Assembly: GCA_965648905.1 (NCBI GenBank)
Contig: CBFGIT010000004.1
Location: forward strand, 64,001-128,000
Direction: 5' to 3'
DNA length: 64,000 nt
Source: a candidate division WOR-3 bacterium
GTDB taxonomy: Bacteria; Hydrothermota; Tepidihabitantia; Tepidihabitantales; Tepidihabitantaceae
A program made the translations under genes and the position numbers. Of this stretch, positions 15,552 to 52,075 are shown in pieces; positions within the stretch are counted from its first letter, which is position 1, and each line of letters begins with the position of its first letter. The notes below the pieces were generated by a model, which saw nothing but the letters and a program-made list of their open reading frames with translations, searched no databases and was not told where the DNA came from.

Positions 15552-15953
15552 ATGGACTACCGCCTGTTGTCGGTCTTCGCCCTTGTGCTTTGGGGGGCGT
15601 GGGGCTTTCTGGCCAAGACCATCTCGGGTCGAGTTTCGCCGCAGGGGCTTGCGTTCTGGAGCACGGTCGCCACGGTTGTGCCGGTCGCGGTCTTCGCGTT
15701 CACCGACACCACCGGCAAATGGACCCGGCCGCATCCGCTGGCGCTCGGTTCCGGTCTCGCCTATGGACTCGCCCTGGTATTCTTCTTCCTCGCGCTACGC
15801 CGCGGCCCGGCATCAGTGGTCGTGCCGCTGTCGGGCATGTACATCGTCGTGCCGGCGGTGCTGGGCTATGTCGTTCTCAAAGAACAGCTCAGCCTGTCTC
15901 ATCTTCTCGGCCTGGTCTGTGCCGGACTGGCGGTTCTTTTCCTGAGCCTGTAG
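15552..15953 (+). CDS. EamA family transporter
   Basis: About 5 TM helices; 'LWGAWGFLAK', 'ALRRGPASVVVPL', 'LKEQLS'. Confidence 0.85.
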   Translation: MDYRLLSVFALVLWGAWGFLAKTISGRVSPQGLAFWSTVATVVPVAVFAFTDTTGKWTRPHPLALGSGLAYGLALVFFFLALRRGPASVVVPLSGMYIVVPAVLGYVVLKEQLSLSHLLGLVCAGLAVLFLSL

Positions 15954-15966
15954 GGCCTGCGTTCAT

Positions 15967-15994
15967 TTGACAACGTTGTTCGAGATGCTAACAT
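15967..15994 (+). promoter_or_regulatory. sigma70-type promoter of the methyltransferase/reductase/selenium operon
   Basis: TTGACA-N16-TAACAT with an extended TG motif. Confidence 0.5.
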
Positions 15995-16250
15995 GAAACC
16001 GTGATTCTCGCGCTGCTGAGGTGCGTACCGTGACTCCGGCCTTGAGCCGGGGCCGTGCGCCCTGGAGACCGAAGACCCACCAGCGCCACAACCGTTTCCT
16101 CATCACAATCACCAAACCAGGCAGATGACCACCGAGCATTGTGCCGGCGGTACGCCGGTTGATCGCGTAGTATCTGTTCCAAACACAGACCGTGCGCCTT
16201 CGGGCGCTGGCAAGACAGGTAGCAAGCAAACATGACCTCAGGAGAAGACT

Positions 16251-17042
16251 ATGCAGAAGCGATACGACTACACCGGTAAGGACGTCCAGGACGTTTACGA
16301 CGGCCCGGGCGGCCTGCTGTGGGAAGCAGTGATGTCCGAGCAGATTCACTCGGGCAAGGATGAAGTGACCGACCGGATGGCAGTAGCCGTGGGCCTGAAA
16401 CCGGGCATGCACGTCCTGGACGTGTGCTCGGCTTTGGGCGCGCCGGCCCGGCACATCGCCAAGAAGTACGGCGTCAAGGTGACCGGGCTCGATTTCACCA
16501 AGACCATGCTCACCAAAGCCATCGAACGGACCAAGGCGGCCGGACTCGACCACCTGGTCAATTTCGTCGAAGGTAACGCTATGGACATGCCGTTCAAGAA
16601 GGAAACCTTTGACGTGGTCTGGGGCCAGGAAGCGTGGTGCTACGTCACCGACAAAGACCAGCTCATGTTCGAGGCGGCCCGCGTCTTGAAGCCGGGCGGG
16701 AAGATCATCTTCACCGACTGGGTCATCACCGGCAAGGTAGACGAGCCGCTGCTCGCCAAACTGTACGAGTCGATGGCGTTTCCGTATATGGAGACCCTCG
16801 AAGGCTGGGCTGACCTGATGAAGAAACACGGTCTGAAGGTTATCGAAGTGAAAGACCAGACCGACGAGTACGCGAAGTGCTTTGACGAGTACAAGAAGAT
16901 GGTCGAGGTGGACCTGAAGCCGACCATCGTCAAGAACTTCGGCGAAGAGCTCTTCGGTTTCGCGACCGGGCTCGTGAACCTGTGGCGCGATGCGGCCCAC
17001 GCGCACAAGGTCGGTCGCGGCTGGTATATGGGCCAGAAGTAG
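16251..17042 (+). CDS. Class I SAM-dependent methyltransferase
   Basis: 'VLDVCSALGAPA', 'VTGLDFT', 'EGNAMDMPF', 'RVLKPGG'; SD AGGAG. Confidence 0.9.
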   Translation: MQKRYDYTGKDVQDVYDGPGGLLWEAVMSEQIHSGKDEVTDRMAVAVGLKPGMHVLDVCSALGAPARHIAKKYGVKVTGLDFTKTMLTKAIERTKAAGLDHLVNFVEGNAMDMPFKKETFDVVWGQEAWCYVTDKDQLMFEAARVLKPGGKIIFTDWVITGKVDEPLLAKLYESMAFPYMETLEGWADLMKKHGLKVIEVKDQTDEYAKCFDEYKKMVEVDLKPTIVKNFGEELFGFATGLVNLWRDAAHAHKVGRGWYMGQK

Positions 17043-17117
17043 AGCTGCGGCCAAGCAGGGCGCGGAGCGGGATGGCGACCCGCGCTCTGCCTGGGCCGTG
17101 AACGAACAGGAGCACAC

Positions 17118-18389
17118 ATGTCTGCACACAGGGCTGTCCTGCAGGAACTCGGTTTGAACCTTGAGCTGCATGATGAGGTGCTGAAGTACATCGACCGGAC
17201 TTTTCAGCAGACGGTCGGTGCGCAGCATGGCCGACCCGAAGGAATCGCCTACTTCGACCAAGTGCTGCACGAGTCCCACGGCGGCCGGGTGGCCGAGCTG
17301 GTCGAACAGAAGAAGAGAGGCAGGAAGACCGTGGGCACGTTCTGCATCTACGTGCCCGAGGAACTGGCCATGGCCGCGAACACCGTGCCGGTCGCCCTGT
17401 GCGGCGGAACCCAGTTCTCGGTGCCGCATGCGGAGAAGATGTTCCCGCGCGACATCTGCCCGCTCATCAAGTCCACGCTCGGGCTGGCCTTTTCTAAGAC
17501 CTGTCCGTACGGGCCGCTCAAGAGTTTGGCCGTGGGCGAGACGACCTGCGATGCCAAGAAGAAGACCTGGGAAATCCTTGCCGGCAAGGTGAACTTCCAC
17601 GTCATGGAGCTGCCACAGAAGAAGGACGCAATCGACTTCGAGCTCTGGCGCAACGCAGTGCGGGAGTTCCAGTCGAAGCTGGAAGACCTGTCCGGCACCA
17701 AGGTCACCAAAGAAGCGCTGGGCGAGTCGATTCGGGTCATGAACAACAAGCGCCGGGCTTTGCAGGAGCTGGCCGAGCTGCGCAAGACCAGCCCGCCGCC
17801 GATTTCCGGGCTCGATGCTTTAGTCGTGATGCAGGCAGCACTGTCGGATGAACCGGTGCGCTTCACTGCGGCCGTGAATCGGCTCAACGCCGAGCTGGTG
17901 CAGCGACGGGAAGACGGATTCTCGCCGGTCGCCAGGAATGCAAGGCGGATAATGATTGCCGGCTGCCCTTCGGTGATGGGCAACTGGAAAGTCCACTCGC
18001 TCATTGAGCAGTCCGGTGCGGTCATCGTCCATGACGAAACCTGCACCGGCTCGCGTTACTTCGAGCACCTGATCGACGAGACCGCCCGAGACCTTGAAGG
18101 TCAGGTGAATGCCGTTGCCGACCGGTACATGAAGATCGACTGCGCCTGTTTCACGCCCAACAAGGAGCGCATCGATTCGGTGGTGCAGAAGGCAAAGGAG
18201 TACAACGTCCAGGGCGTCGTGCAGTACGTGCTTCAGACCTGCCACGGTTACAATATCGAAGCGATGCGCGTCGAAGCAGCGCTAAAGGCGGCAAACGTGC
18301 CAAGTCTGAAAATCGTCACCGACTACTCGGAAGAAGACGCGGGGCAGTTGCGCACGCGGATCGAGGCGTTTGTCGAGCAACTCGGCTAG
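17118..18389 (+). CDS. 2-hydroxyacyl-CoA dehydratase-family protein, probably a double-cubane cluster reductase (DCCP)
   Basis: 'GTFCIYVPEE', 'LCGG', 'PRDICPLIKS', 'GETTCDAKKK', 'GCP', 'ETCTGSRY', 'IDCACFTPN', 'QTCHGY', 'TDYSEEDAGQLRTRIEAF'. Confidence 0.85.
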   Translation: MSAHRAVLQELGLNLELHDEVLKYIDRTFQQTVGAQHGRPEGIAYFDQVLHESHGGRVAELVEQKKRGRKTVGTFCIYVPEELAMAANTVPVALCGGTQFSVPHAEKMFPRDICPLIKSTLGLAFSKTCPYGPLKSLAVGETTCDAKKKTWEILAGKVNFHVMELPQKKDAIDFELWRNAVREFQSKLEDLSGTKVTKEALGESIRVMNNKRRALQELAELRKTSPPPISGLDALVVMQAALSDEPVRFTAAVNRLNAELVQRREDGFSPVARNARRIMIAGCPSVMGNWKVHSLIEQSGAVIVHDETCTGSRYFEHLIDETARDLEGQVNAVADRYMKIDCACFTPNKERIDSVVQKAKEYNVQGVVQYVLQTCHGYNIEAMRVEAALKAANVPSLKIVTDYSEEDAGQLRTRIEAFVEQLG

Positions 18390-18397
18390 GAGGTCTT

Positions 18398-19159
18398 GTC
18401 AGGTCAGTTGGCATCGACATCGGCTCGCGCACGACCAAGGTCGTGGTGCTTGAAGACGGCAGGCCGGTCCACTCGTGCGTCGCCGATACCGGCACCGACC
18501 CGCTCGGCGTTGCTCAGCGCCTGCTCGCTGAGGCCGGTACTGACCGGTTGGCACGTGTCATCGCCACCGGCTATGGCCGACACCTGGTCCGTGAGCACCT
18601 GGGCTGCACCGTCGTGACCGAGATAAGGGCCCACGCGCTCGGCGCGAGCCGGCTATTCCCTGCCTGCCACACGGTAATTGACGTCGGCGGACAGGACAGC
18701 AAGGTGATAAGAGTCTCCGCGGGGAAGCAAGCAAACTTCGAGATGAACGACCGGTGCGCTGCCGGCACCGGTCGTTTCCTCGAAGTGATGGCCACGGCCC
18801 TGGGCTACACCCTGGCCGAGTTCGGTCGGGCTGCGCTCGAAGCCCCAAGCTCAGTGACCGTGAACTCGATGTGCACGGTCTTCTCCGAGTCCGAAGTAGT
18901 TTCGCTCATTGCCCGGGGTGCGGACAAGCACGCGATCGCTTGCGGTCTGCACGAGTCGATTGTTGACCGGCTGCTCGCCCTGGTCGGCCGGGTTGGAGCA
19001 GAGCCGGAAGTGGTCCTCTCCGGCGGTGTGGCACTTAACCCATGCATCCGAACGTTGCTCGAAAGCCGGCTCGGGGTCCGGCTTCTGGTGCCGGACCGGC
19101 CGCAACTTGTCGGCGCGATTGGTGCGGCGCTGAGTGTGAATGGAGCAACGGCCGTATGA
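18398..19159 (+). CDS. ATP-dependent activator (BadF/BadG/BcrA/BcrD, CoA-substrate-specific enzyme activase); start codon uncertain
   Basis: 'VGIDIGSRTTK', 'ATGYGR', 'IDVGGQDSK', 'MNDRCAAGTGRFLE', 'NSMCTVFSESEV', 'SGGVALN'. Confidence 0.88.
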   Translation, partial: VRSVGIDIGSRTTKVVVLEDGRPVHSCVADTGTDPLGVAQRLLAEAGTDRLARVIATGYGRHLVREHLGCTVVTEIRAHALGASRLFPACHTVIDVGGQDSKVIRVSAGKQANFEMNDRCAAGTGRFLEVMATALGYTLAEFGRAALEAPSSVTVNSMCTVFSESEVVSLIARGADKHAIACGLHESIVDRLLALVGRVGAEPEVVLSGGVALNPCIRTLLESRLGVRLLVPDRPQLVGAIGAALSVNGATAV

Positions 19160-19202
19160 ACGGCGTGCGCTATCTCTTTACACTCGGCCGGAGGTGGAAC
19201 TC

Positions 19203-19382
19203 GTGACTCACGCTGCAAAGGGAGGCAGTCTGCCTTCCGCGACCGAAGTCCGCCGTGCAGTACCAATCGCGCTGCTGGTTGCCGGGCTAGTCTGCCTGGG
19301 AATCGCCACTCTCCTGCAACAATGGGCTCTTGTCCACCAAGTGAGTACCAGTATATGACTGCCGTGCATGGGCCTGGTTTAG
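19203..19382 (+). CDS. Small membrane selenoprotein candidate (59 aa, C-terminal UxxC; CD1871A-family-like)
   Basis: SD GGAGG at 19190; TM helix; ends STSI-TGA-LPCMGLV-TAG; hairpin GGGCCT-GGTTT-AGGCCC starts 11 nt after the TGA. Confidence 0.75.
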
Positions 19383-19437
19383 GCCCCAAACCCGCTGTCG
19401 GAAGTCCGGCAGCACATGTTCCTGAAAGGAGGAACAC

Positions 19438-21234
19438 ATGACACCAAAGGCCGTGATTCAGGTTTTGCTGGCATTGGCTGCCACGGCCAGCGCATCGCAC
19501 CGGGTGATGGTCATCGAAGACGTCACCGCCACCTGGTGCACCTACTGCCCTGGAGCCGCGCGCGGGGCAGACGAGCTCAAGTTCCGGGCGTTCGATTCGG
19601 TGGTGGTTATCGGATACCACTCGTCCTCAAGCGACCCGTTCTATACCGCAACCGCGGCCGCCCGTATGAGCTACTACGGAGTAACGGGATATCCGACCGT
19701 GGTGCTCGACGGCTCCAACTCGATTGTCGGTGGTCTGCACACCGGTACGATGTACCCGACCTATCGTCAGTACTTTGACTACCGGAAAACCGTTCCGACG
19801 CCGCTCGAAATCGACCTGTCGGTTGCCTACGATTCAGTGAGCCGTAACGGTACTCTTACCATCGTGGTGCGCAACATCGGTTCGTCCTCAGTCAGCGGCC
19901 AGTTGCAGGTCGCGCTCATCGAGAGCCACATCTACTATCCCTGGCAGGGGATGGACAGCCTGCAGGACGTCGAGCGAACCATGCTGCCAAATGCTTCAGG
20001 CGAGGCTATCACAGTCCCGGCCGGAGATTCAGTCGTTCGTACGCGCAGTTTCAGCATCAACCCGAGCTGGGTTGCGCGCAACTGCGACTTCGTAGTCTTT
20101 GTGCAGAACAACACGAATCGCGAGATGTTCCAGGGCGCGACAATCGCGGTCATCCCCGAGCCAGTGCTTCGGTTCGTCGGTTACCAGTCGGTGCTGCCCG
20201 CACCGGGCGGCGAGTTCGACCTGACCGTTGGTCTGCGCAACATCGGCTCAGCCAATGCTCAGGGCGCAAGCGCCGCGCTCTCAACCACCGACCCGAACGT
20301 GACCGTGCTCACCGCGAATGCGAACTTCGGGCCGATCAGGGTGGCCGAGGACGGTTACGCACAGACGCCGTTTCGCATCAGCGTGTCAAGTGGCTGTCCG
20401 GACCCGCATGTCGCCTCAATGCGCCTGGTCGTCACGGGCTCGGACTTCAGTATCGACACTGTCCTCTTCCCACTCAACATCACCGCGAGCCCGGGCTACT
20501 GCGACAACATGGAGTACGGCCAGCATGGCTGGACGCACAACGGCATATTGGACAACTGGCACCTGACTACCTATCGCAGCGTGTCGCCGACTCACAGTTG
20601 GTACTGCGGCCAGGAAGGCAGCTATCAGTATACCAACGAGAATGACGCCCGGCTGATGACGCCTTTCTACACCATCGGGGACTCAACCGCGATGCACTTC
20701 CAGCACTACTACGGCACTGAGCTGAACTATGACTTCTGCCTGGTGGAAATCGGCAACGGTTCACCCTTCTGGTGGCCGCTCGCGCAGTACAGCGGCTCCT
20801 CATCAGGCTGGCAGCAGGCCGACTTCAACCTGGCCCGGTTCCAGGGGCAGACCGTGCAGGTCCGGTTCCGCTTCATCAGCGACTACAACGTGACCGGCGA
20901 AGGATGGTACATCGACGACTTCTGGAGCGGAGCGCTGACCGGGGTGGCGGAACGGTCGCATGGTCTGGTTCTTTCCACCGGGACAGGCAGCAACCCGTGC
21001 CATAAGAATGCGCGGTTGCACTATCAACTGCCCGCGGGCAGGGACGGCAGCATTGCGGTCTTCGACATCGACGGCCGCGTGGTGCGCTGCCTCAAAAGGT
21101 CAGTCACTGGTTCGGGTCGGGCCGACTGGAACCTTGCCGATGACCTCGGACAGCCGGTAGGAAACGGGACCTACTTTGTCCGACTGAAGTCAGGCGACGC
21201 TGCTCAGACCGTGAAGCTCGCCGTAGTCAGGTAG
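19438..21234 (+). CDS. Omp28-related thioredoxin-fold protein with Ig-like, beta-sandwich and T9SS/FlgD-like C-terminal domains
   Basis: Signal peptide; 'EDVTATWCTYCP', 'YYGVTGYPTVVLDG'; 'VRFRFISD..GWYIDD'; 'IAVFDIDGRVV..GTYFVRL'. Confidence 0.85.
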   Translation: MTPKAVIQVLLALAATASASHRVMVIEDVTATWCTYCPGAARGADELKFRAFDSVVVIGYHSSSSDPFYTATAAARMSYYGVTGYPTVVLDGSNSIVGGLHTGTMYPTYRQYFDYRKTVPTPLEIDLSVAYDSVSRNGTLTIVVRNIGSSSVSGQLQVALIESHIYYPWQGMDSLQDVERTMLPNASGEAITVPAGDSVVRTRSFSINPSWVARNCDFVVFVQNNTNREMFQGATIAVIPEPVLRFVGYQSVLPAPGGEFDLTVGLRNIGSANAQGASAALSTTDPNVTVLTANANFGPIRVAEDGYAQTPFRISVSSGCPDPHVASMRLVVTGSDFSIDTVLFPLNITASPGYCDNMEYGQHGWTHNGILDNWHLTTYRSVSPTHSWYCGQEGSYQYTNENDARLMTPFYTIGDSTAMHFQHYYGTELNYDFCLVEIGNGSPFWWPLAQYSGSSSGWQQADFNLARFQGQTVQVRFRFISDYNVTGEGWYIDDFWSGALTGVAERSHGLVLSTGTGSNPCHKNARLHYQLPAGRDGSIAVFDIDGRVVRCLKRSVTGSGRADWNLADDLGQPVGNGTYFVRLKSGDAAQTVKLAVVR

Positions 21235-21241
21235 GAGAACG

Positions 21242-22036
21242 ATGTCTTTGTCAGTGGCGACCAGAGCCCTTGGTCTGGCCTCCTTTCTGGGCCTGGTCGC
21301 CCTGACCGGATGTTCTTCTGCGCCCGAGGTGTCGATTATCCCGACCAACCGCGTGGTGCTGGCTGAGCTCTTTACCTGGCAGCGCTGTTCCTACTGCCCC
21401 TATGCTGCGCGCACGCTCGACAGTCTGGCCCGTGAGTTCGCAGACAGCGTGGTCGTGGTAGCGTATCACCGCCGGGTTGCGGGTGATACGCTCTCGCCCG
21501 AGTACGTCGAGGAACGACGGGCCTACTACTACGACCAGGGCGGCGAACCGGCCACGGTCTTTGACGGCGGACCGCCGGTGCGCACACCCGGGCCTGAGCA
21601 CAACTACGCGACTTTCCGCAACTACATCTTGGCCGCAAAGAGCGTGACGCCCAAGGTCCAGCTCGACCTTGCCGCGGAGCTTGACTCGCTCGAAGGCACG
21701 GTCACGGTTGCGGCGCGCGGCGTCGACTCGACACCATCAGATACTCTGCAACTGTTTGTTGTGCTGGTTGAGGACAGCGTGCGCAAAGACCTGCCCGGCG
21801 CGACTGATTCGGTGTTCAACAGCGTCATGCGGGCGATGCTGCCTGGCCCGACCGGGCGACCGATTCGGCTCACACGACTGGATACGCTGACGGTCAAAGA
21901 GTCGTTCCCTCTTAACCAGAAGTGGAACCGCGCGCGGCTCGGGGTAGTGGCGTTTGTCCAGCACCCGACCACGCAACAGGTCCTGCAGGCGGCCGCCATC
22001 CACAGACTCGCAGATACGAAAGGAGTCCAACAATGA
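21242..22036 (+). CDS. Omp28-related thioredoxin-fold lipoprotein
   Basis: Lipobox LTG-C; 'ELFTWQRCSYCP'; 'VVAFVQ..VLQA'. Confidence 0.85.
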   Translation: MSLSVATRALGLASFLGLVALTGCSSAPEVSIIPTNRVVLAELFTWQRCSYCPYAARTLDSLAREFADSVVVVAYHRRVAGDTLSPEYVEERRAYYYDQGGEPATVFDGGPPVRTPGPEHNYATFRNYILAAKSVTPKVQLDLAAELDSLEGTVTVAARGVDSTPSDTLQLFVVLVEDSVRKDLPGATDSVFNSVMRAMLPGPTGRPIRLTRLDTLTVKESFPLNQKWNRARLGVVAFVQHPTTQQVLQAAAIHRLADTKGVQQ

Positions 22037-22704
22037 ACCACTCGACACTGAGGCTCTATTTCCTGGTTCTGGCAACAGGTGTCTTCCTTACCGACGCAAC
22101 GGCGTTCTCTTCGCCGTTCAGTCTGGTCTGCCGCTCTGACACCGTGCAGCAGGTAGAACCAGGCGGCCAGTCCGAGTTTCATTTCACCTTGACCAACACC
22201 GGCACGCAGCCAGACGTCTACCGGCTTGACTACCGTGTGCTCGACAGCGTACCCGGCTGGATTGTAGTCTGCTGCGTGCGCGGCCGATGCGCTGAGCCGG
22301 GCGTGCCGTTCTTCGACACGCTGGCACCGGGCGAGGCGGACTCCTCGCCCGACCTGACCGTGTACACCAACTCGACCCACGGCGAAGAGGTCGTCAATCT
22401 CAAAGTAACGTCACTGGGCGAGCCGCAGATGGTGGACTCAATCAGTACGCGTACACGCGTGGGCGCGGGCGTTGCTGAGCCGGGCCGCTCCTCCCGGGCT
22501 TGCCGGATTCAGCCCGCAGCGCGCGTCGTGCGTGACATGCTCTTGCTGGATGCTGAATGCTCGCCAGCCGTGTTGCTCGATGCCTGCGGCCGCAGTGTTC
22601 TCAGCCTGACCAGCGGCCCAAACCGAATTGCGCGGCTCGCCCCCGGCGTGTACTTCGTGCGCCCGACCGACCACAGACCGGGCGCAAAGGTCGTAGTGAA
22701 CTAA
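22033..22704 (+). CDS. Exported Ig-like protein with a Cys cluster and a T9SS-like C-terminal tail
   Basis: Signal peptide; 'WIVVCCVRGRC'; 'LLDACGRSV..LAPGVYFV..KVVV'. Confidence 0.75.
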   Translation: MNHSTLRLYFLVLATGVFLTDATAFSSPFSLVCRSDTVQQVEPGGQSEFHFTLTNTGTQPDVYRLDYRVLDSVPGWIVVCCVRGRCAEPGVPFFDTLAPGEADSSPDLTVYTNSTHGEEVVNLKVTSLGEPQMVDSISTRTRVGAGVAEPGRSSRACRIQPAARVVRDMLLLDAECSPAVLLDACGRSVLSLTSGPNRIARLAPGVYFVRPTDHRPGAKVVVN

Positions 22705-22743
22705 GCGCCACTCGACAATGGGCCAGGGTCGGCACAAACGGCG

Positions 22744-23010
22744 GTGACTACAGGAACGCGGCCCGGCAGGGTTCCTGCCGGCTCCTGCGAACCGGACGGC
22801 GTCGAGTTGGCCTTTGCGTCGGTGCGCGAGTTGCTGCGTGCCGGCGAGCTGCTCAGGTCGGCAGGCTTTGACGTACTGGTAGTCCCGCGCCGCGTTCCGG
22901 ATTGCGGGGCGCTGCTGCTTCTCCCGCGTCGGTCGGTTGAGGCCGCACTCGCCTTGCTTGCAGCGCACTCAATTTCGCCCGTTGAGGAGGTGAATCATGA
23001 GCGACAGTAG
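22744..23010 (+). CDS. DUF3343-like putative Se/S carrier protein
   Basis: 'FASVRELLRAGELL..G..VVPRRVPDCG'; lies directly before yedF. Confidence 0.65.
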   Translation: MTTGTRPGRVPAGSCEPDGVELAFASVRELLRAGELLRSAGFDVLVVPRRVPDCGALLLLPRRSVEAALALLAAHSISPVEEVNHERQ

Positions 23011-23608
23011 TTCTGGACCGCAGAAACCAGCAGTGGAGCTTGATGTCCGCGGACTTGTCTGCCCGGAGCCGGTGGTAAGAACAAGAAAGGCTTTGGAAAG
23101 CGCCACGGTGGGAACGGTCGTGACCGTTACGACCGACAGCCCGGAGTCCCGGGACAACATCATTCGGTTTGCCCGGCGCTCAGGATGTCCGGCCGTGACC
23201 GAAGAAACAAAGTCGGGCGTCTTCATTGTTCGCATCACCAAGGCCAGTGTCCCCGGGCCGGTCTGCACGCGAACCGGCACAACCGTACTCGTTACATCAG
23301 AACGACTCGGTTCCGGTGACGACAAGCTGGGCAACCTGCTCATGACCCTGTTCCTGCGTACCCTGACCGAGCTGCCTTCACGACCATCGATTCTGGCGCT
23401 GATGAACGGCGGTATCAAACTGGCCTTGTCCGACTCGGAGCATCTTCCGTCGCTGCGTAGCCTGGCTGACCAGGGTGTCAAGGTGATGGTCTGCGGCACC
23501 TGCCTTGATTTCTTCGGGGTCAAGGACCGCGTGTCGGTCGGCACTGTCTCCAACATGTACGAACTGGCCGAATCACTCGCGGCCGCCGAGAAGGTCATCG
23601 TACTCTAA
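22997..23608 (+). CDS. yedF: Sulfurtransferase-like selenium metabolism protein YedF (TusA plus DsrE domains)
   Basis: 'LDVRGLVCPEPVV', 'LGSGDDKLG', 'MNGGIKL', 'CGTCLDFF', 'VGTVSNMYE'. Confidence 0.9.
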   Translation: MSDSSSGPQKPAVELDVRGLVCPEPVVRTRKALESATVGTVVTVTTDSPESRDNIIRFARRSGCPAVTEETKSGVFIVRITKASVPGPVCTRTGTTVLVTSERLGSGDDKLGNLLMTLFLRTLTELPSRPSILALMNGGIKLALSDSEHLPSLRSLADQGVKVMVCGTCLDFFGVKDRVSVGTVSNMYELAESLAAAEKVIVL

Positions 23609-23621
23609 TCCAGGAGGAATC

Positions 23622-24671
23622 TTGAAGCGTCGTCTGCTCGACTACGCCAAGGCCGCGGGCTGAGCGGCCAAGGTCTGCCAGGAAGACCTGGCGCAGGTAC
23701 TGCGTCAGCTTCCTGCCTTCTCGCATCCTGACCTCCTGGTCGGCGGCGAGACCTCGGACGACGCCGGCGTGTACCGGCTCGACCCGGAACGCGCGCTCGT
23801 CTTGACCGTGGACGTGCTCACGCCGATTGCCGACGACCCCTATGTCTTCGGCCAGATTGCCGCGGCCAACTCGCTATCCGACGTGTATGCCATGGGCGGC
23901 ACGCCGGTCGCGGCCCTGAGCATCATCACCTTTCCGGTCGGCGAGATTGCGCATGACGACGTGCGGGCGATGCTCGCGGGCGCTTGGGACAAGGTGCGTG
24001 AGGCCGAAGCGGTCATCGCCGGCGGCCACACGCTCAAGGATGTCGAGGTCAAGTGCGGGCTTTCGGTCACCGGCCTGGTCCACCCGGACCGGGTGGTGAA
24101 GAACGTTGGCGCCAGACCCGGCGACACGCTGGTCCTTACCAAGCCACTCGGCACCGGTATCATCACCACTGCCTTGCGGGTCGACCTCGCGCCGGCGTCC
24201 GCAGTCGCTGAGGCAAACCGAGTGATGACAACGCTGAACCGGGCTGCGGCTCGGGCCATGTGCGAGACCGGAGTTCATGCCGCGACCGATATCACCGGGT
24301 TCGGCCTGCTTGGCCATGCCTGGGAAATGGCGCAGACCGGCGACATAGACATCGTCATCGAAGCAGAACAGGTTCCGCTCATACCCGGGGCGCTGGACCT
24401 GGCTGGAGAGTCGCTCTTTCCTGCCGGCTCGCTTAAGAACTGCGACTTCATGAAATCGCGGGCCGACTTTGCTCCGTCCGTACCTGAAGACCGGCGCCTG
24501 CTCCTGTGCGATGCCCAGACATCAGGCGGGCTGCTCATGTCTGTTCCGGAAGCCCGGGCTGATTCGCTGCTGAACCGGCTTCACGATGCGGGTGTCCAAG
24601 AAGCCGCTGTTATCGGCCGGGTCCGGGAAGGTTCTGGCCGGATTCAGGTCACCTGGACTCCCCAACTGTGA
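23622..24671 (+). CDS. selD: Selenide, water dikinase SelD, Sec-containing (UGA at 23661-23663)
   Basis: SD AGGAGG and TTG start; 'YAKAAG-U-AAK'; 'SDDAGVY', 'FGQIAAANSLSDVYAMGG', 'TDITGFGLLGH', 'DAQTSGGLL'. Confidence 0.95.
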
Positions 24672-24836: not shown

Positions 24837-25217
24837 TCATCTCAATGCCAGTCCGTATCCGACAACATGCGGCTGACCGGATTCCAGCACAACCCTGCCC
24901 ATCGCCTGCACGTTGCTGCCGACCCGCTGCGGGATAAAGACGTTGGTCGGGTGCATGTCTACATAGATGTCGCCGGTCCCGTCCTCCACCCATATCCAGC
25001 CGCCCGATGGGCACTCGCTCGTTATCTTCCCGGCCACAAGCACATCCCTACCCTCCCACGCCGTCGGGTTGTTCAGAATCTCCCGGGCGGACGTGATGAC
25101 CATACCAGTGGAAATCGCCTTGCCGTAGGTGGCCGCCTTTGCCGCCGCACGCCGGCTGCCGCAGCCCACGACGGCTGCGGCAGCCATCAGGACCAGCCCC
25201 AATGCGAAGTACTTCAT
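24837..25217 (-). CDS. OB-fold-like lipoprotein
   Basis: Lipobox VVG-C; 'GRDVLVAGKITSECPSGGWIWVEDGTGDIYV'. Confidence 0.7.
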   Translation of the reverse strand: MKYFALGLVLMAAAAVVGCGSRRAAAKAATYGKAISTGMVITSAREILNNPTAWEGRDVLVAGKITSECPSGGWIWVEDGTGDIYVDMHPTNVFIPQRVGSNVQAMGRVVLESGQPHVVGYGLALR

Positions 25218-25927
25218 GTCATCTCCTTTGTTGTTTCTTCTCGGATAGCTCTGCCGTCCGAGAACTCGATAATCCTGTGTCCGACCCGGGCCAGCTCCGG
25301 GTCATGGGTCGCCACGATGATGCCCAATCCTTCGTCCGCGAGCCCGCGGAAGATACCGGTCACCGACTCGCGCGACTTCCTCTCCAGCCTGCCGGTCGGC
25401 TCGTCGGCGAGGAGAATCCTCGGTCGGTTGACCAGGGCGCGCGCGATGGCAACACGCTGCATGTCACCACCGTTGAGATGACGCGGCAGCGCCTTACGCA
25501 CCTTCTCGAGTCCGACGCGCTCGATCAGCTCGGCAACGCGGCCGCCATCGCGCCGGCGGGCGAAGACGAGCGGCAGCCTGATGTTCTCCTCGACCGTCAG
25601 GGTCGGAATCAGGTAGAACAACTGAAAAATGAACCCGATGTGCTCGCGCCGGAACCGCACGAGCTCCTGCTCCTTCAGCCCGGCGACCTCGGTATCCGCA
25701 ATCTTCAGGCTACCCCTTGTCGGCCGGTCTAGGCATCCGAGCTGGTTGAGCAGCGTGGTCTTGCCCGACCCGCTCCGCCCCATGACCGAGACAATTTCGC
25801 CCGTCCTCAGGTCAAGGTCAACACCGGCCAGGGCGTGGATGGTCTCGCCGCCACGGCGAAAGCTCCGCCACAGATTCCGTGCCTCAATCAACTTCCGATC
25901 GGCCGTCGGCAACCGGTCATTGGCCAT
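25214..25927 (-). CDS. ABC transporter ATP-binding protein (LolD/MacB type)
   Basis: GRSGSGKT, LNGGDMQRVAIAR, LADEPTG, ATHD. Confidence 0.92.
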   Translation of the reverse strand: MANDRLPTADRKLIEARNLWRSFRRGGETIHALAGVDLDLRTGEIVSVMGRSGSGKTTLLNQLGCLDRPTRGSLKIADTEVAGLKEQELVRFRREHIGFIFQLFYLIPTLTVEENIRLPLVFARRRDGGRVAELIERVGLEKVRKALPRHLNGGDMQRVAIARALVNRPRILLADEPTGRLERKSRESVTGIFRGLADEGLGIIVATHDPELARVGHRIIEFSDGRAIREETTKEMT

Positions 25928-25928
25928 T

Positions 25929-26687
25929 CTAGATGACTCCGTCCTGAAGCCTTATGACCCGCGAGAACCGAGGTTCAAGACCTCGGTCATGGGTGGCGAT
26001 GACCACGGTGAGGTTCGAGCCCAGGTTCAGGTCCGAAAGGAGGTTCAGGATCTCGTCGCGGGTTCTCGTATCAAGATTCCCGGTCGGCTCGTCGGCCAGA
26101 AGGAGTTTCGGGTCGTTGATGAGCGAGCGGGCAACCGCTACTCGCTGCATCTCACCGCCGGACAGCTCAACCGGCCGGTGCGTCATACGGTGTCCCAGCC
26201 CGACGCGCTCCAGCAGTTCCCGGGCGCGCGCGCCGGACTTGCCTGGAGGACACGATTCGAATTCGGCGGACCGATTGCGGTCACTTCCCCGTGCCGGGTC
26301 GTTGCTGCCCCATATCGTCGGCAGCAACACATTCTCAAGTGCGCTCAGGTTCGGCATCAGGTAGAACTCCTGAAACACGAAGCCGATGTTGCGGCGCCGG
26401 AGTGCATCGAGCTTCACCCGGTGCCGAGTCACATCGTGTCCCAGTATGGTCAGTCGGCCCCCGGTGGGCCGGTCCATCAGGCCCAGCAGGTTTAGCAGTG
26501 TGGTCTTGCCCGCGCCCGAGTGGCCGACAACACCAAGGAACTCACCCGACTCGATGCTCAGGTCAATGCCCTTGAGCGCGTGTATCTTCTCCGCCCCGCG
26601 CCGATACACCCTGGTCAGCCCGCGCGCCTCGACTGCCTGGCCCGGCCCGCCATGCTGACTTCTGACTTCGACCGGGTCCACGCTCAC
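25929..26687 (-). CDS. ABC transporter ATP-binding protein (LolD/MacB type) with a short insertion
   Basis: GHSGAGKT, LSGGEMQR, LADEPTGNLD; GTG overlaps the upstream stop. Confidence 0.92.
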   Translation of the reverse strand: MSVDPVEVRSQHGGPGQAVEARGLTRVYRRGAEKIHALKGIDLSIESGEFLGVVGHSGAGKTTLLNLLGLMDRPTGGRLTILGHDVTRHRVKLDALRRRNIGFVFQEFYLMPNLSALENVLLPTIWGSNDPARGSDRNRSAEFESCPPGKSGARARELLERVGLGHRMTHRPVELSGGEMQRVAVARSLINDPKLLLADEPTGNLDTRTRDEILNLLSDLNLGSNLTVVIATHDRGLEPRFSRVIRLQDGVI

Positions 26688-27844
26688 TCCGTCTTTATCG
26701 CCTCGATCGGCCTGATGCTGGCGGCACGCAGCGCCGGATAGAGCCCGGCGAGGAGGCCGAGCACAATCGAGAGCCCGATGCAAGCAAGCATCGTCAGGAC
26801 CGAGAGCCCGATGAGCGAGCCCTCAGGCGCGAAGGGTATCATCCCGCGAATCAGCTCCTCGACCAGGCGTGAGGACCCGAGCGCGATGAGCACGCCGACC
26901 GCGCCGCCGCTCGCTGTGGTGAGGATAGTCTCGGCCCACGTCAGCTTGAACACGTCGCCGCGCGAGCCGCCCATCGCCTTCATCATTCCGATCTCCCGGG
27001 TCCGCTCGAACACCGCCATCAGCACCGTATTCAGTACCCCCACGCCGCCGAGGATGATGGCGATGAAGATGACTGCCGACACGAATACCCGGGTACTCGC
27101 CATCAACTGCCCGATCGTGCCGAGCAGCTCGGTCAGCGGGAATACGTTCATGTCCACTTCGCTCGCCTTGAGCGAGGCGACGAGATTATCAGTCTGGTCC
27201 ACCTTCCGGGCCTTGATGAGGATCAACACCAGCTTGCCTTCGAGCCCGGAAATCCGCTGCAGGGTCTTGCGTGGCATGAAGACGAACCCGTCGTCCTGGG
27301 TATTGGTGCGATTGACCACGGCGCTCACCCGCAGGGTCACGTTCTTCTCCGGCAGGGTCCACCGGTCGCCGGGCTCCAGTCCTGTCTCCTCGGCCACCGA
27401 CGAACCCAGGATGATGCTTGAATCCGATGCGAACCACGCACCGCGCAGCTCCCATGCCGGCCGCAGATGCATGTAGTCCTCGTCGATGCCGAGCATGATG
27501 ACGTTTCTGCCGCCGGGCTGGAACACCGCGTCCATTATCACGCCCGCGGCTTCGGCCACGCCCGGGTCGGCCTTCACTTTGTCCAGCAACCCCTCGTCCA
27601 TGTAGCGCGGCCATTTACCGCCGTGCAGCGCGATCGTCGCCGCCTCATACGGGCAGCCTTTGGGCACGACCATGACGTGCGCGCCCAGGGCCCCGAGCTC
27701 GCCTTTGAGCCGCGACTGGTAGCCCTGCTGGAACTCAAACAGCGAGTACAGCACCGCGATCGCAATCGCCACACCCAAGACGGTCAATATGGTCCGAATC
27801 GGGCGCCGGGCTAGGTTCTTGAACGCCAGCACGAACCAGGTCAT
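26684..27844 (-). CDS. MacB/FtsX-family ABC permease
   Basis: 'KNLARRPIRT', 'VVPKGCPYEAA', 'ERTREIGMMKAMG', 'YPALRAA'. Confidence 0.92.
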   Translation of the reverse strand: MTWFVLAFKNLARRPIRTILTVLGVAIAIAVLYSLFEFQQGYQSRLKGELGALGAHVMVVPKGCPYEAATIALHGGKWPRYMDEGLLDKVKADPGVAEAAGVIMDAVFQPGGRNVIMLGIDEDYMHLRPAWELRGAWFASDSSIILGSSVAEETGLEPGDRWTLPEKNVTLRVSAVVNRTNTQDDGFVFMPRKTLQRISGLEGKLVLILIKARKVDQTDNLVASLKASEVDMNVFPLTELLGTIGQLMASTRVFVSAVIFIAIILGGVGVLNTVLMAVFERTREIGMMKAMGGSRGDVFKLTWAETILTTASGGAVGVLIALGSSRLVEELIRGMIPFAPEGSLIGLSVLTMLACIGLSIVLGLLAGLYPALRAASIRPIEAIKTE

Positions 27845-27847
27845 CGG

Positions 27848-29008
27848 CTACTCGCTCCTCAGCGCTTTGATCGGCTTGGCACGCGCGGCGCGCAGCGCCG
27901 GGTAGAAGCCAGCGACGACCGCGATGCCAAGGACAAATGCCAGCACCAGCAGGAAACTGCCGGGCTCGAGCGCCACCACGCTGCCCCTGGGCGCGAGCGG
28001 CAGGAATCTCTTCACCACATTCTCGATGAGCCGCCCGCCGACCACTGCGAGCCCGAGCCCGCCGGCCCCGCCGAGCAGCGCCAAGATCAGCGTCTCAAGC
28101 CAGACCAGTCCGAAGATGTGCATCTCACTCGCTCCGGTCGCACGCATCACGCCGATATCGCGCGTCCGCTCGAATACCGACATCAGGACGGTATTGAGCA
28201 CGCCGAGAGCCGAGATGACGATGATAATCAGCACGATCGAGAGCAGGAGCGAGCGGGCCGCACCCATCAGGGTCATCATCGTGCCGAGCAACTCGCCCAT
28301 CGTGATTACCTCGGCACCCTTGATGCCTGCGAGCCTGGCCGTGACTGTGGGCGCGTCCTCCGGGTCTTTGAGCCGGATCGAGATCGCGGTCAGCTTGCCC
28401 TCCTGCTTGAACAGCCGCTGCGCGGTCGCGAGCGGGATATGGAAGAACCCGTCGTCCTCGGTACCGGTTGGCGCCAGCCTGCCGACGACGTTGAACGTCG
28501 CATCTTCCTCGGGCAGGTAGAGCTGGTCCCCGACCGACGAAAGCTCGATGAGCGAGACGTCGTGGCCGATGACCACGTCGTCGGGGTGTTCGAGGAACCT
28601 GCCTTCGATTTTCCACCAGTTCTTCAGTCGAAGCGTAGCCGAATCGATGCCGACGTAGATGTCGGTCCGTCCCTCTTCCGGCCGGATAACTCCGCTCATG
28701 AAGCTGGGCGCGGCAAGGTCGATTTCCGGTATCTTGCGTACGTCGTCGAGCACCTCGGCCGGCAGGTAGCTCGGGATCTTGCCGCCCTTGAGGATAAGCG
28801 AAGCAGCCTCGTAGGGACAGCCGACCGGCACGACCATCATGTGGATACCCATGCCCTGAAGTTGAGTCGTGAGCGCCTTCTCATACCCGCGATTGAACGA
28901 GACCAGAGTGAAGAGCACGGCCACCGCCATGATCATGCTTGCCAGAGTCAGGACCGTCCGTGTCCGGTGCGCGAACAGGTTCTTGAAGGCGAACCGGGTG
29001 AAGTTCAC
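27848..29008 (-). CDS. MacB/FtsX-family ABC permease
   Basis: 'VVPVGCPYEAA', 'ERTRDIGVMRATG', 'YPALRAA'. Confidence 0.92.
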   Translation of the reverse strand: MNFTRFAFKNLFAHRTRTVLTLASMIMAVAVLFTLVSFNRGYEKALTTQLQGMGIHMMVVPVGCPYEAASLILKGGKIPSYLPAEVLDDVRKIPEIDLAAPSFMSGVIRPEEGRTDIYVGIDSATLRLKNWWKIEGRFLEHPDDVVIGHDVSLIELSSVGDQLYLPEEDATFNVVGRLAPTGTEDDGFFHIPLATAQRLFKQEGKLTAISIRLKDPEDAPTVTARLAGIKGAEVITMGELLGTMMTLMGAARSLLLSIVLIIIVISALGVLNTVLMSVFERTRDIGVMRATGASEMHIFGLVWLETLILALLGGAGGLGLAVVGGRLIENVVKRFLPLAPRGSVVALEPGSFLLVLAFVLGIAVVAGFYPALRAARAKPIKALRSE

Positions 29009-29619
29009 TGGTCCTTCCCTATCCGGTTCAACCCGAGCTCGTCGTGCACAACCAAGAGCTTACGCACGGCATTGGCCACGGCCTGCGAGGCCTTCTCCGC
29101 TCCCGGAGCCGCAGCCTTCAATCCGGTCCGGTCGTTCGTTCCTCGCCCCTCGTCATTCATCAACCGGAATTCGTCATTCACCCTCATGCCCCTGAATTGT
29201 CCAAGAAATTCCTGGCTGCGCAGCGCCGCCTTGGCCTTCTCCCGGTCGCGTTGGATGCGGACTTCTCTCACTGCGGTTCCGGACTCGGTCGGCACCACTG
29301 CCACGACGACCTCGATTGCCCCGAACTGGCCCTTGCCCGCATGGGTCATCACCGTGCCGACCTGCTTCCCACCTCGATACACCGGAAAGAACTTGAACTG
29401 GGTCTCGTCCGGGTCGAGCGCAAACCCCAGCCGCTTCTCGATGCGCGCGCGCTGTGCCGCGGAGATATCCGCGAACACCGTCCTGTAGCTGCCACCGGAG
29501 CCGAACATGCCCGCGATGTCCGAGTCCGGCTGCCGCCAGACACACAGCGCAGCGGTCACTTGGCCCGCGACGAGCCCAAGCGCCAGGCTAGAAGCGAACC
29601 ACCAGTTGCGTCGCAACAT
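29005..29619 (-). CDS. Exported FMN-binding-domain-like protein
   Basis: 'GKGQFGAIEVVVAV', 'FLGQFRG', 'GAEKASQAVANAV'; signal peptide. Confidence 0.7.
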   Translation of the reverse strand: MLRRNWWFASSLALGLVAGQVTAALCVWRQPDSDIAGMFGSGGSYRTVFADISAAQRARIEKRLGFALDPDETQFKFFPVYRGGKQVGTVMTHAGKGQFGAIEVVVAVVPTESGTAVREVRIQRDREKAKAALRSQEFLGQFRGMRVNDEFRLMNDEGRGTNDRTGLKAAAPGAEKASQAVANAVRKLLVVHDELGLNRIGKDQ

Positions 29620-30571
29620 GCCAGTGCCCTTCGCTGAAGCTCATCACGTCCGACCAGCCGCGCTGGTACAGCGTCTGGAGTTCGAACGCCGATACGTTGG
29701 GCGGGTACAGGTTCAGGCCGAGCGACAGGGTGTTGAGCCGGCCGCCGTCGGCGTGAAACCCGTCGACCTCGACCAGCGGTTCCAGCCAGTTGGCGATGGC
29801 ATAGCGCGCTTCGGCGTAGTAGCCGTACACCGCCGCGACGCCCGTCGACCCGTCGCGGCCGGCCACCGCCTCCAGTCGCAGAGTCAAGGGGCCCCAGTCG
29901 GTTGTGTTGTCTAGACCGAACCGGTATTTTCTCTTGTATGACCGGGGACCCTCAACCTGCGCGACAATGCTGTCGATGTGCCAGTAGGGCAGCGAACCCG
30001 CGAGTCCGCTTGCGCCCAACGTCAGCTCGGCGTCGCCCAACAGAAACCTGGGCGCAACTCGAGCGGTGACGAGTTTGTTGCGGTCGTTGTCCATCCGGTC
30101 CGGTCCGTTGCCGTTGGACAACCATAGTGCATACTGCCATCGCTCGAGCGCGCCCAGCACGCCGACTCCGGGGTCGAGGCGCAGACCCAGAGTCCTGGCG
30201 AATGTCGTCTGAATGACCTGGGTGTGGACGTCATAGTCTGCCAGCAGGCCGAACGGAACTACTGCCTGCCCGACGCGTGCTGTCGGCAGGGACAGGCCGA
30301 GTGGCACCAGCGCGTAGGCCTCACCGAAGTGGAATCCCCTCTGCCAGCCCGACATCACTCCGCTCGCGTAGACCTGCACCACTGCCCTGACGAGGTCCCT
30401 GGTCTCGCTCGTCACCTGCGCTTCGAGGAGTGCCTCGGCCGCCATCAGCTCAAAGCTTGAACCGGTCTGGTCGATCATGAATCGGGGATAGAGCGCTCCG
30501 CCCAGCCGGACGTACGTACCGGCCCAAGTCAGAGCCGCGAGCATGCCGACCACCAGACTAGCTCTGGTCAT
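29588..30571 (-). CDS. Outer-membrane beta-barrel (porin-like)
   Basis: Signal peptide, alternating strands, 'RVGQAVVPFG', 'NGNG..DNDRNK', C-terminal Phe. Confidence 0.7.
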   Translation of the reverse strand: MTRASLVVGMLAALTWAGTYVRLGGALYPRFMIDQTGSSFELMAAEALLEAQVTSETRDLVRAVVQVYASGVMSGWQRGFHFGEAYALVPLGLSLPTARVGQAVVPFGLLADYDVHTQVIQTTFARTLGLRLDPGVGVLGALERWQYALWLSNGNGPDRMDNDRNKLVTARVAPRFLLGDAELTLGASGLAGSLPYWHIDSIVAQVEGPRSYKRKYRFGLDNTTDWGPLTLRLEAVAGRDGSTGVAAVYGYYAEARYAIANWLEPLVEVDGFHADGGRLNTLSLGLNLYPPNVSAFELQTLYQRGWSDVMSFSEGHWHVATQLVVRF

Positions 30572-49993: not shown

Positions 49994-50374
49994 GTGCCCA
50001 AAGTACTGATAGTTGACGACGACCCGGACATCGTTGATTCGGTCGGCCTTGTGCTCAAGGCCGAGGGTTACGGCGTGGCCGCCGCGACCAGCCGGGAAGA
50101 AGCGATGCGGGCCGTCGAGACCGAGAAGCCCGACCTCATCATCCTCGACGTGATGATGGAGCAGCCGGACGATGGGTTTGTGGTTGCCCAGGACCTGCGC
50201 CACAAGGGCGTGAAAACGCCGATTATCATCCTGTCGTCAATCGGCCACGTGACCGGTTACAAGTACGGCAAGGATTCTGAGGTCGCACCGGTGGATGAGT
50301 TTGTGTCCAAGCCGATTGCACCAAAAGCCCTGCTGGCCAAGGTCCGGGCCCTCTTGGGCGGAAAGAAGTCTTGA
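49994..50374 (+). CDS. Single-domain response regulator receiver
   Basis: 'VLIVDDD', 'PDLIILDVMM', 'FVSKP'. Confidence 0.92.
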   Translation: MPKVLIVDDDPDIVDSVGLVLKAEGYGVAAATSREEAMRAVETEKPDLIILDVMMEQPDDGFVVAQDLRHKGVKTPIIILSSIGHVTGYKYGKDSEVAPVDEFVSKPIAPKALLAKVRALLGGKKS

Positions 50375-50376
50375 GT

Positions 50377-50898
50377 ATGCTCGCTACGGAAAGAGAATCG
50401 CTCCGCCGCGAGATTGCGGAGCTGGCCGAGAAGTACGAGCACAAGCGTGACGGCATGATGCCGATTCTGGAGGCGATTCAGGAGAAGTACCGCTACATCT
50501 CCGACTTCGCCATGCAGGAAGTCGCGCGTCAGCTTGGCGTGTTTCCGACCGAGGTCTACGGCATCGTGTCGTTCTACTCGTTCCTTTCAACCGAGCCCAA
50601 GGGTCGGTTTGTTATTCGGCTGTGCCGGACCCTGTCGTGTGAGTTTGCCGGCAAGAAAGAGGTCGCCCGCCAGTTGCAGAACGAGTTGGGCATCAGGTTC
50701 GGCGAGACCACCAAGGACCGGATGTTCACTCTGGAGTACTGCAATTGCCTTGGAATGTGCGACCACGGGCCGGCCATGCTTGTGAACAACGACGTCTATA
50801 CCCAGGTTCATCCGGAGATGGTCTCGGAAATCATCGACAAGTACCGCCGGACCTTCGGCCCGGCCCAGCAGCTTGCTGCCGGAGGGCATCATGAATAG
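50377..50898 (+). CDS. NuoE-like [2Fe-2S] hydrogenase subunit (HydC-like)
   Basis: 'CRTLSC' and 'CLGMC'. Confidence 0.9.
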   Translation: MLATERESLRREIAELAEKYEHKRDGMMPILEAIQEKYRYISDFAMQEVARQLGVFPTEVYGIVSFYSFLSTEPKGRFVIRLCRTLSCEFAGKKEVARQLQNELGIRFGETTKDRMFTLEYCNCLGMCDHGPAMLVNNDVYTQVHPEMVSEIIDKYRRTFGPAQQLAAGGHHE

Positions 50899-52072: not shown

Positions 52073-52075
52073 GAC

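Follow-up and report, generated by a model that had tools for sequence, protein, structure and literature searches.

A candidate selenocysteine-gated stop-restart leader at a selenium-linked ten-gene operon of a WOR-3 bacterium

Here, we analysed a 64,000-nucleotide stretch of a candidate division WOR-3 bacterium (assembly GCA_965648905.1, contig CBFGIT010000004.1, positions 64,001 to 128,000; hereafter the window) and describe a selenium-linked gene island together with short reading frames that may control it. Ten co-directional genes, reported by the initial annotation, are indeed present at 16251-24671 on the plus strand, tightly spaced (intergenic gaps of -14 to +75 nt) behind a single promoter-like site. 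They encode, in order, an S-adenosylmethionine (SAM) methyltransferase (16251..17042), a class I double-cubane cluster protein (DCCP; 17118..18389), the DCCP reductase, an ATPase activator (18398..19159), a UxxC membrane microprotein (19203..19382), two Omp28-like proteins and one Ig-like protein, all exported (19438..21234, 21242..22036 and 22033..22704), a DUF3343 putative Se/S carrier (22744..23010), YedF (22997..23608) and a second selenophosphate synthetase, SelD (23622..24671). The in-frame UGA codons claimed for two redox-motif genes, at 19356 (UxxC) and 23661 (SelD), are likewise there, with Cys codons opposite them in relatives. Outside the range of the initial annotation, or overlooked by it, are two chains of regulatory mini-ORFs on the plus strand at 16001-16235 and 19156-19441. 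The chains contain four A/G-UGA junctions (16031, 16126, 19204 and 19356), each with a hairpin of the selenocysteine insertion sequence (SECIS) type and an overlapping next start, and they end at the methyltransferase start and at the Omp28 start.

The first chain begins behind a predicted sigma-70-type promoter (-35/-10; 15967..15994, 10/12 consensus match), an equivalent of which was found in 23 of 25 leaders and in none of the other two. The first upstream ORF, uORF1 (16001..16033), is predicted to be leaderless: in all 23 promoter-matched leaders the first A/GTG, 3-9 nt past the -10 box, opens a frame that runs without a stop to UGA1. This UGA (16031-16033) ends uORF1, and read-through with selenocysteine (Sec) would stop at TGA 16043. 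Hairpin 1 (16049..16063) lies 15 nt past UGA1. Its 5 pairs are 100% paired in 18 sequences with two-sided changes at 4/5 pairs, and its covariation score was equalled in 0/500 shuffles, a test that is partly circular because the sequences were preselected for having the stem. uORF2 (16030..16170) starts at a GTG that overlaps UGA1 and runs into UGA2 (16126-16128), from which Sec read-through would end at TAG 16168, 83 nt before the methyltransferase. Its start is in frame with UGA2 in 17/18 leaders, at nine distinct lengths of 84-150 nt. The ribosome site of uORF2 is predicted to be paired (unpaired probability 0.00-0.47), in agreement with a need for translational coupling. We rejected the idea that uORF2 is a functional selenopeptide, since its middle is not conserved. 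Hairpin 2 (16144..16158), again 15 nt past its UGA, is 98% paired over 6 pairs; the UGA and both CCGG arms are invariant in 19/19 sequences, the same pattern having been used for finding them. uORF3 (16125..16235), whose ATG overlaps UGA2, varies in length in 9-nt repeats and stops here 18 nt before the methyltransferase start.

Among 24 leaders (three more, whose next gene escaped recognition by the script, were left unscored), the uORF3 stop falls at -18 to +4 relative to the first gene's start in 18; the remaining frames end at +26 (three), are fused in frame (one) or miss the gene (two). The Sec read-through frame ends within -25 to +6 of that start in 0/24, the third frame in 1/24. In every unit, the base ahead of the UGA completes a start codon. 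For the last leader UGA it is A or G in 26 of 27 leaders, the other one having TTG, compared with 5 of 28 ordinary Sec codons taken from SelD, Omp28, Ig-like and SCO4226-like genes.

The strict pattern (UGA, 15 nt, hairpin) occurs within 450 nt before the methyltransferase in 19/63 upstream regions (18 distinct), compared with 28 matches in 6 Mb of this genome; two further copies from relatives precede the EamA gene. For hairpin 2, a class-wide exact pattern lacked stringency and also missed the window's own copy. When 20 leaders were aligned, a second, upstream unit of identical geometry was seen in 18. A generic search for tandems of two in-frame units returned one match in 6.0 Mb of this genome, which is this leader, and 27 matches (some redundant) in 5.75 Mb of collected loci, all ahead of island genes. 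An ABC importer is among these genes, as is Omp28 in a different family, and three-unit chains exist in two genomes. By eye, the last frame of the leaders before Omp28 overlaps the ATG in one, falls 24 nt short in one and runs into the gene in one. An RNA model of unit 1 matches 27/36 other genomes of the family and none in other families (110 genomes searched). A second tandem leader, at L151:2719 (minus strand), precedes a His-rich ABC binding protein, its last mini-ORF being fused in frame. No terminator-like site was found between 15995 and 16250; a hairpin further downstream in the leader lacks a U-tract and is missing from some leaders. Each unit carries a single UGA, and neither the run of regulatory sense codons nor the terminator/antiterminator pair of an attenuator was seen. 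An Rfam search of the window gave no match at the gathering score.

The second chain links the activator to the exported proteins. uORF4 (19156..19206, 16 codons) starts at an ATG overlapping the activator stop and runs to UGA3 (19204); this UGA overlaps the start of the microprotein and is followed by a SECIS-type hairpin (19222-19236). This 48-nt linker with its hairpin is common to five loci, and the RNA model R1 finds its counterpart in G001 and G030. For the microprotein, GTG 19203 is the most likely start, giving 59 residues; its Sec codon is UGA4 (19356), and its hairpin (19370-19386) begins 11 nt past the UGA and extends its 3' arm beyond the stop codon. Among homologs, 12 are of Sec type and 11 of Cys type, and the hairpin is intact (6/6 pairs) in 9/12 and 0/11, respectively. 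The mean fold energies are -12.0 and -1.6 kcal/mol, to be read with the different base composition of the two groups; one locus with both types gave -13.4 and -4.4 kcal/mol. uORF5 (19355..19441) begins at an ATG overlapping UGA4, and its stop overlaps the ATG of the Omp28-like gene. That ATG arises from an ATA preceding the UGA in 13/13 Sec-type copies, and ATA is a rare codon (4/72 Ile codons in five window genes). The uORF5 stop lies on the next gene's ATG in 7 of the 9 copies scored, those with a recognised next gene, and at -15 and -20 in the other two. The microprotein resembles CD1871A in layout only: against the cut-off of 32 bits of NF040920, the window copy gave no match and the copy on contig C1 18 bits. 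The latter belongs to a cluster on contig C1 of G000 (L130:7108-12503) that encodes Omp28, TlpA, DUF6029, the UxxC microprotein and a 4Fe-4S membrane protein, and it likewise has ATA-TGA and the hairpin. A membrane relay, proposed initially for the window microprotein, is doubtful, as the usual 4Fe-4S partner gene lies beside the C1 copy and the UGA doubles as a regulatory junction.

The exported trio carries thiol motifs, one of them not as first described. The Omp28-like protein has a CxxC motif, a MAM-like domain and a tail of type IX secretion system (T9SS) type. It has UPYC orthologs in three genomes and a UPYC paralog on contig C18 (L133:6698-8428, G000), a selenoprotein that gene callers would cut. 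The lipoprotein, with a lipobox seen in the sequence, is an Omp28 family member (PF11551) with CxxC. The Pfam Omp28 domain is recognised, whereas scores for the Omp28-related selenoprotein model NF045500 (75 vs 200 bits) and the Omp28 lipoprotein model NF033782 (76 vs 150 bits) stay below cut-off, with Cys in place of Sec here. Two of the three exported redox proteins thus have the CxxC ascribed to them. The CC..C motif of the third was rejected in favour of a conserved W-x4-C-x4-C/U, and instead of a thioredoxin fold it has an Ig-like beta-sandwich with a C-x4-C/U hairpin, with no Pfam or NCBIfam family. Its best ESM Atlas match (0.86) is to unnamed Bacteroidota clusters and serves as a lead only. 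Three of 49 homologs (L143, L126 and L118) have Sec with hairpins downstream, and the Ig-like C-x4-U protein is a candidate new selenoprotein family.

The reductase, called double-cubane-type in the initial annotation, is a true class I DCCP. It scores 465.8 bits with NF040772 (cut-off 350) and aligns with the Carboxydothermus hydrogenoformans DCCP over residues 5-422 at 403 bits, compared with 96 for BzdN and 71 for a HadC-type dehydratase (beta) subunit. Residues C76, C95, C114, C144, C309, C342 and C375 align with the Cys of 7YYL/6ENO. The printed Cys motif, taken literally, finds no match; the spacings are 18/18/29/164/32/32. The N-terminal extension aligned to the C. hydrogenoformans structure is the mark of class I. 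An ordinary 2-hydroxyacyl-CoA dehydratase was rejected on the family scores (HadC 124 vs 700, BzdN 103 vs 454) and on the single gene in place of an alpha-beta pair. From family membership, an [8Fe-9S] cluster and ATP-driven reduction would be expected. The adjacent activator (TIGR00241, 231 bits, cut-off 125) has no canonical start codon before its first conserved motif and likely begins at a non-canonical GTC (18398). We rejected a pseudogene. Of 22 distinct DCCP-adjacent activators, 12, including the window copy, lack ATG, GTG or TTG and appear to start at ATC, ATA, ATT or GTC (window 18390-18410; L036, L118, L123, L127, L128, L155, L157, L160, L168, L171 and L174), which suggests deliberately low expression. 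A TorF-like porin and a sodium/solute symporter (SSS) occur solely beside DCCP (L044, L124, L166, L167, L170, L174 and L226), twice inserted between DCCP and activator, and in 5/58 methyltransferase loci, always with DCCP there; the pair is therefore a candidate importer of the DCCP substrate.

The methyltransferase has the fold of phosphoethanolamine and sarcosine N-methyltransferases and belongs to a WOR-3 subfamily found in 65/221 genomes, outside the known sarcosine/dimethylglycine and phosphoethanolamine families (NF041675, 113 vs 550 bits). The catalytic Tyr19 is kept; His132 and the phosphate-binding positions are replaced. Tyr27, Tyr160, Tyr175, Arg179 and Tyr181 of PfPMT correspond to the invariant W24, W157, L171, M175 and F177, a change to Trp, Trp, Leu, Met and Phe that points to a substrate which is small and either apolar or an onium compound. 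In a 50%-cluster library, a tight subfamily and 30-39% relatives without context were seen. Outside WOR-3, one of 251 genomes of a Desulfobacterota-centred sample had a copy (34%), without island genes. In this genome, a corrinoid-Mlp-HgdB-HgdA-Mlp-activator module lies on contig C2 (L131:5698-11964); six of the seven DCCP cysteines are conserved in its HgdB, and a RACo-type activator was not found in this genome with the queries used. HgdA matches have one in-frame TGA in 14 genomes, at the C-terminus in the cases inspected.

The selenium genes largely carry the names first given to them: YedF, with its TusA and DsrE domains (TIGR03527, 188.7 bits), and SelD (TIGR00476, 360 bits) pass the family cut-offs, while DUF3343 is a weak Pfam match here (PF11823, 15.9 vs 25) with an ortholog at the cut-off. 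The SelD paralog beside selB on contig C8 is 44% identical. The genome has the Sec decoding genes, with selA on C1, selB and the second selD on C8 and tRNA-Sec on C35, and it has Rho. In 4 of 5 genomes selected to compare the two copies, the island SelD is of Cys type and the other copy of Sec type. A SCO4226-like small protein beside selD has a UGA opposite Cys in seven loci (L157, L159, L160, L161, L163, L171 and L174).

Is the ten-gene set a common unit among relatives? We surveyed 221 WOR-3 genomes of at least 85% completeness, among which kin are not independent and a miss does not equal absence. Matches were found to the methyltransferase in 65, HgdA in 68, selA in 93, DCCP in 35, the Ig-like protein in 50 and YedF in 15. 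The methyltransferase genomes have HgdA in 65/65, selA in 61/65 and DCCP in 24/65; the DCCP genomes have selA in 33/35. The constant partner of the methyltransferase is the corrinoid/HgdAB module, not DCCP. At 58 methyltransferase loci, many of them truncated at a contig end, the corrinoid protein follows as the next recognised gene in 27 and DCCP in 7; 26 of the stretches include a sel gene or yedF. What comes after the methyltransferase varies: DCCP, or an SsuA/SaoX-like ABC importer with a barrel and an FtrB-like gene, or nothing; in G001, of the same genus, it is the importer, with the activator only as a remnant. Methyltransferase, DCCP, Ig-like protein and YedF occur together in only 3/221 genomes, and the same ten-gene order recurs at one other locus, in G004. 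Linkage and the selenium connection of the initial annotation are thus supported, while its single dedicated linear system gives way to a mosaic.

Upstream of the operon, a small transporter of the EamA/DMT type (15552..15953, plus strand; Pfam EamA) may act as an exporter or importer. It is present in 12/58 methyltransferase loci and stands directly behind the leader in two relatives; here, co-transcription is only possible. Right after selD, the minus strand (24837-30478) carries a convergent gene cluster for two ATPases of the MacB/LolD type, two permeases and three proteins without assignment. Judged from translations, window positions 49994-54055 encode a response regulator followed by NuoE/NuoF-like and hydrogenase-like genes, and contig C1 of G000 (L130:78-2714) has Cas1/Cas2-like genes.

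We propose that the ten genes form a selenium-starvation scavenging operon gated by Sec at the chained overlapping mini-ORFs, a reading to which we assign a probability of roughly two thirds. When Sec-tRNA is scarce, the ribosome would terminate at each UGA, reinitiate on the overlapping start and reach the gene (ON). When Sec is inserted, it would keep its frame and meet a dead-end stop 27-151 nt upstream, so that translation falls and, through Rho, probably transcription too (OFF). Two or three stages would multiply the effect. In the ON state, the surface thiol proteins may capture and reduce outside selenium, DCCP and its ATPase may reduce small imported selenium species to selenide, and DUF3343 and YedF may hand selenide to the second SelD, the enzymes serving as a supply line to selenophosphate. 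That starvation is the ON condition is suggested by the Cys-type island SelD that relatives have alongside a Sec-type second copy, by the frequent importers in the operon and by the rise of related corrinoid genes under Se starvation in M. maripaludis (PMC11097638). The switch and the enzyme substrates are inferred from sequence.

Several observations weigh against this proposal. The island SelD and the microprotein of this genome themselves need Sec, an oddity if the operon answers starvation. Because the downstream genes possess ribosome sites of their own, and folding gave no consistent change of methyltransferase-site access with ribosome position, the output step is hard to account for. 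Read-through at UGA1 stops just 12 nt on and could therefore leak. In G011, uORF2 does not keep the frame, unit 1 is absent from two leaders, and uORF3 misses the next gene in 2/24 leaders and overshoots by 26 nt in 3. The strict pattern covers only 19/63 of the methyltransferase upstream regions, and the RNA model is limited to one family. Finally, ATA is kept in 8/12 Cys-type microproteins, so that junction 4 may be partly inherited.

Could the sign be the opposite? SAM methyltransferases are known selenium detoxifiers, and an operon that is ON when selenium is plentiful, because UGA stops uncouple translation, could use its methyltransferase to volatilise or store surplus selenide. The Sec carried by SelD and the microprotein would then be natural, and polarity at a Sec codon has a precedent in T. 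primitia fdhF (PMC3892789). We nevertheless regard this as rather unlikely: it leaves the starts fused to UGAs unexplained, it does not expect that the frame used after termination, and in no case the read-through frame, should end where the gene starts (18 vs 0 of 24), and it is at odds with a Cys-type backup SelD under the leader. Less likely still, the hairpins may be SelB-binding operators at which the SelB-Sec-tRNA complex blocks initiation, the mini-ORFs being secondary. Such a mechanism, which Thanbichler and Bock are said to have described for E. coli selAB in 2002, would have the same sign as the switch proposed here. The hairpins, however, lie 90-200 nt from the methyltransferase start, although hairpin 1 is only 16 nt into uORF2, and neither an invariant in-frame UGA nor a leaderless start nor conservation of frames would be required by an operator.

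The remaining alternatives concern the genes. SelD, YedF and DUF3343 might act in maturation, inserting selenium as a bridge in the double-cubane cluster, a formal possibility raised by Haft and Gwadz (bioRxiv 2022.07.06.499078), which would make DCCP a seleno-enzyme for another substrate. In the same work, 955 of 970 high-scoring DCCPs occur in SelD genomes, and among WOR-3 genomes DCCP adjoins YedF in G073 and G085. Yet 28/35 DCCP genomes gave no YedF match (7/35 have one), G001 and G007 keep YedF-SelD without DCCP, and a selenium-consuming enzyme would not be induced by a lack of selenium. We rejected YedF and SelD as obligatory DCCP maturases, and find the bridge improbable, slightly more so than the operator. 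The least credible of the alternatives is a loose island, in which unrelated modules lie near sel genes and the Omp28 trio is a generic envelope redox set with no selenium function. Among 19 further trio loci, picked among more distant carriers, only 3 have selenium genes and the trio also occurs alone; in G119 it sits with TlpA/DUF6029, 5/50 carriers of the Ig-like protein lack a selA match, and gene order varies widely. However, Sec relays are connected to the trio in two families, each by its own route, and Sec orthologs exist for two of the three proteins.

Returning to the Sec-gated scavenging operon, its chemistry can be sketched with less assurance. The methyltransferase would serve the corrinoid/HgdAB module on contig C2; our best guess from its pocket is a selenoether substrate. 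For the reaction itself, the leading candidate, though well below even odds, is methylation of an organoselenide; the resulting selenonium ion would undergo reductive C-Se cleavage and corrinoid demethylation. Class I DCCPs have narrow channels suited to small molecules (PMC7317905). Somewhat short of even odds, we picture a stackable logic gate of WOR-3 bacteria, in which a start fused to a Sec UGA and a SECIS hairpin is chained two or three deep, reused through a selenoprotein gene and switched on by termination, with DCCP releasing selenium from a small compound in the environment and the methyltransferase, HgdAB and corrinoid proteins together taking organoselenium through methylation, cleavage and demethylation. 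If this holds, the gate would be a naturally occurring sensor for the 21st amino acid, built on the coupling of stop and restart. The physiological substrate of DCCP is not known; a Sec-limited ON state would narrow the search to selenium supply and give this orphan reductase a role in scavenging. The leader would also be a sequence tag for further selenium-uptake genes, for which the literature consulted establishes no dedicated transporter.

How does this system compare with known ones? The enzyme set is close to published selenium-linked clusters, and the newness lies in the switch. The C. hydrogenoformans class I DCCP and its reductase (PMC7317905, PMC9351452) share the seven-Cys protein, the N-terminal extension and the adjacent ASKHA activator; the window DCCP differs in lying under a predicted Sec relay and beside a methyltransferase. 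Neighbourhoods of SelD, YedF, DUF3343 and an activator (Lin et al. 2015, PMC5322559) bring the core families together, and Haft and Gwadz likewise propose that DCCP processes selenium compounds. The novelty claimed initially for the combination is reduced by these published links. The window operon has no YedE, Sec lyase or LysR and adds the methyltransferase, the microprotein, the Omp28 trio and control at the mRNA level, none of which appear in the available passages; Omp28 and CD1871A in particular are not mentioned there, and supplements could list such neighbours. No description of Omp28 together with selenoproteins was found in the literature searched. Type 1 mlp clusters and SdmABC (Kountz and Balskus, PMC10418091; PMC11097638), proposed for methyl-selenium salvage, pair a corrinoid protein with two UroD-type methyltransferases, often near DCCP, and resemble the partner module of the methyltransferase. 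In the WOR-3 versions, a SAM methyltransferase is added, as are HgdA and HgdB with a dedicated activator. A Type 1 cluster, with corrinoid protein, RACE, Mlp2 and Mlp3 together, is absent from the window operon; the related cluster is that on C2.

For the switch itself, the literature searched, which left out most subscription literature, held no such Sec stop-restart system, and the nearest was T. primitia fdhF. There, selenium is also sensed through UGA, SECIS and SelB, but inside a selenoprotein gene and with the opposite sign, ON with selenium (PMC3892789). Upstream ORFs that gauge charged tRNA are familiar from leader-peptide attenuation (trpL, hisL) and from GCN4-type reinitiation. E. 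coli selAB reportedly also senses selenium through UGA, SECIS and SelB, at a SECIS-like operator and with no translated relay. The leader described here would share with trpL, hisL and GCN4 the short upstream ORFs as charged-tRNA sensor; it differs in what does the sensing, a stop/sense codon that carries a SECIS hairpin and is fused to the following start, and in that the signal would pass by termination and reinitiation, no terminator/antiterminator having been found.

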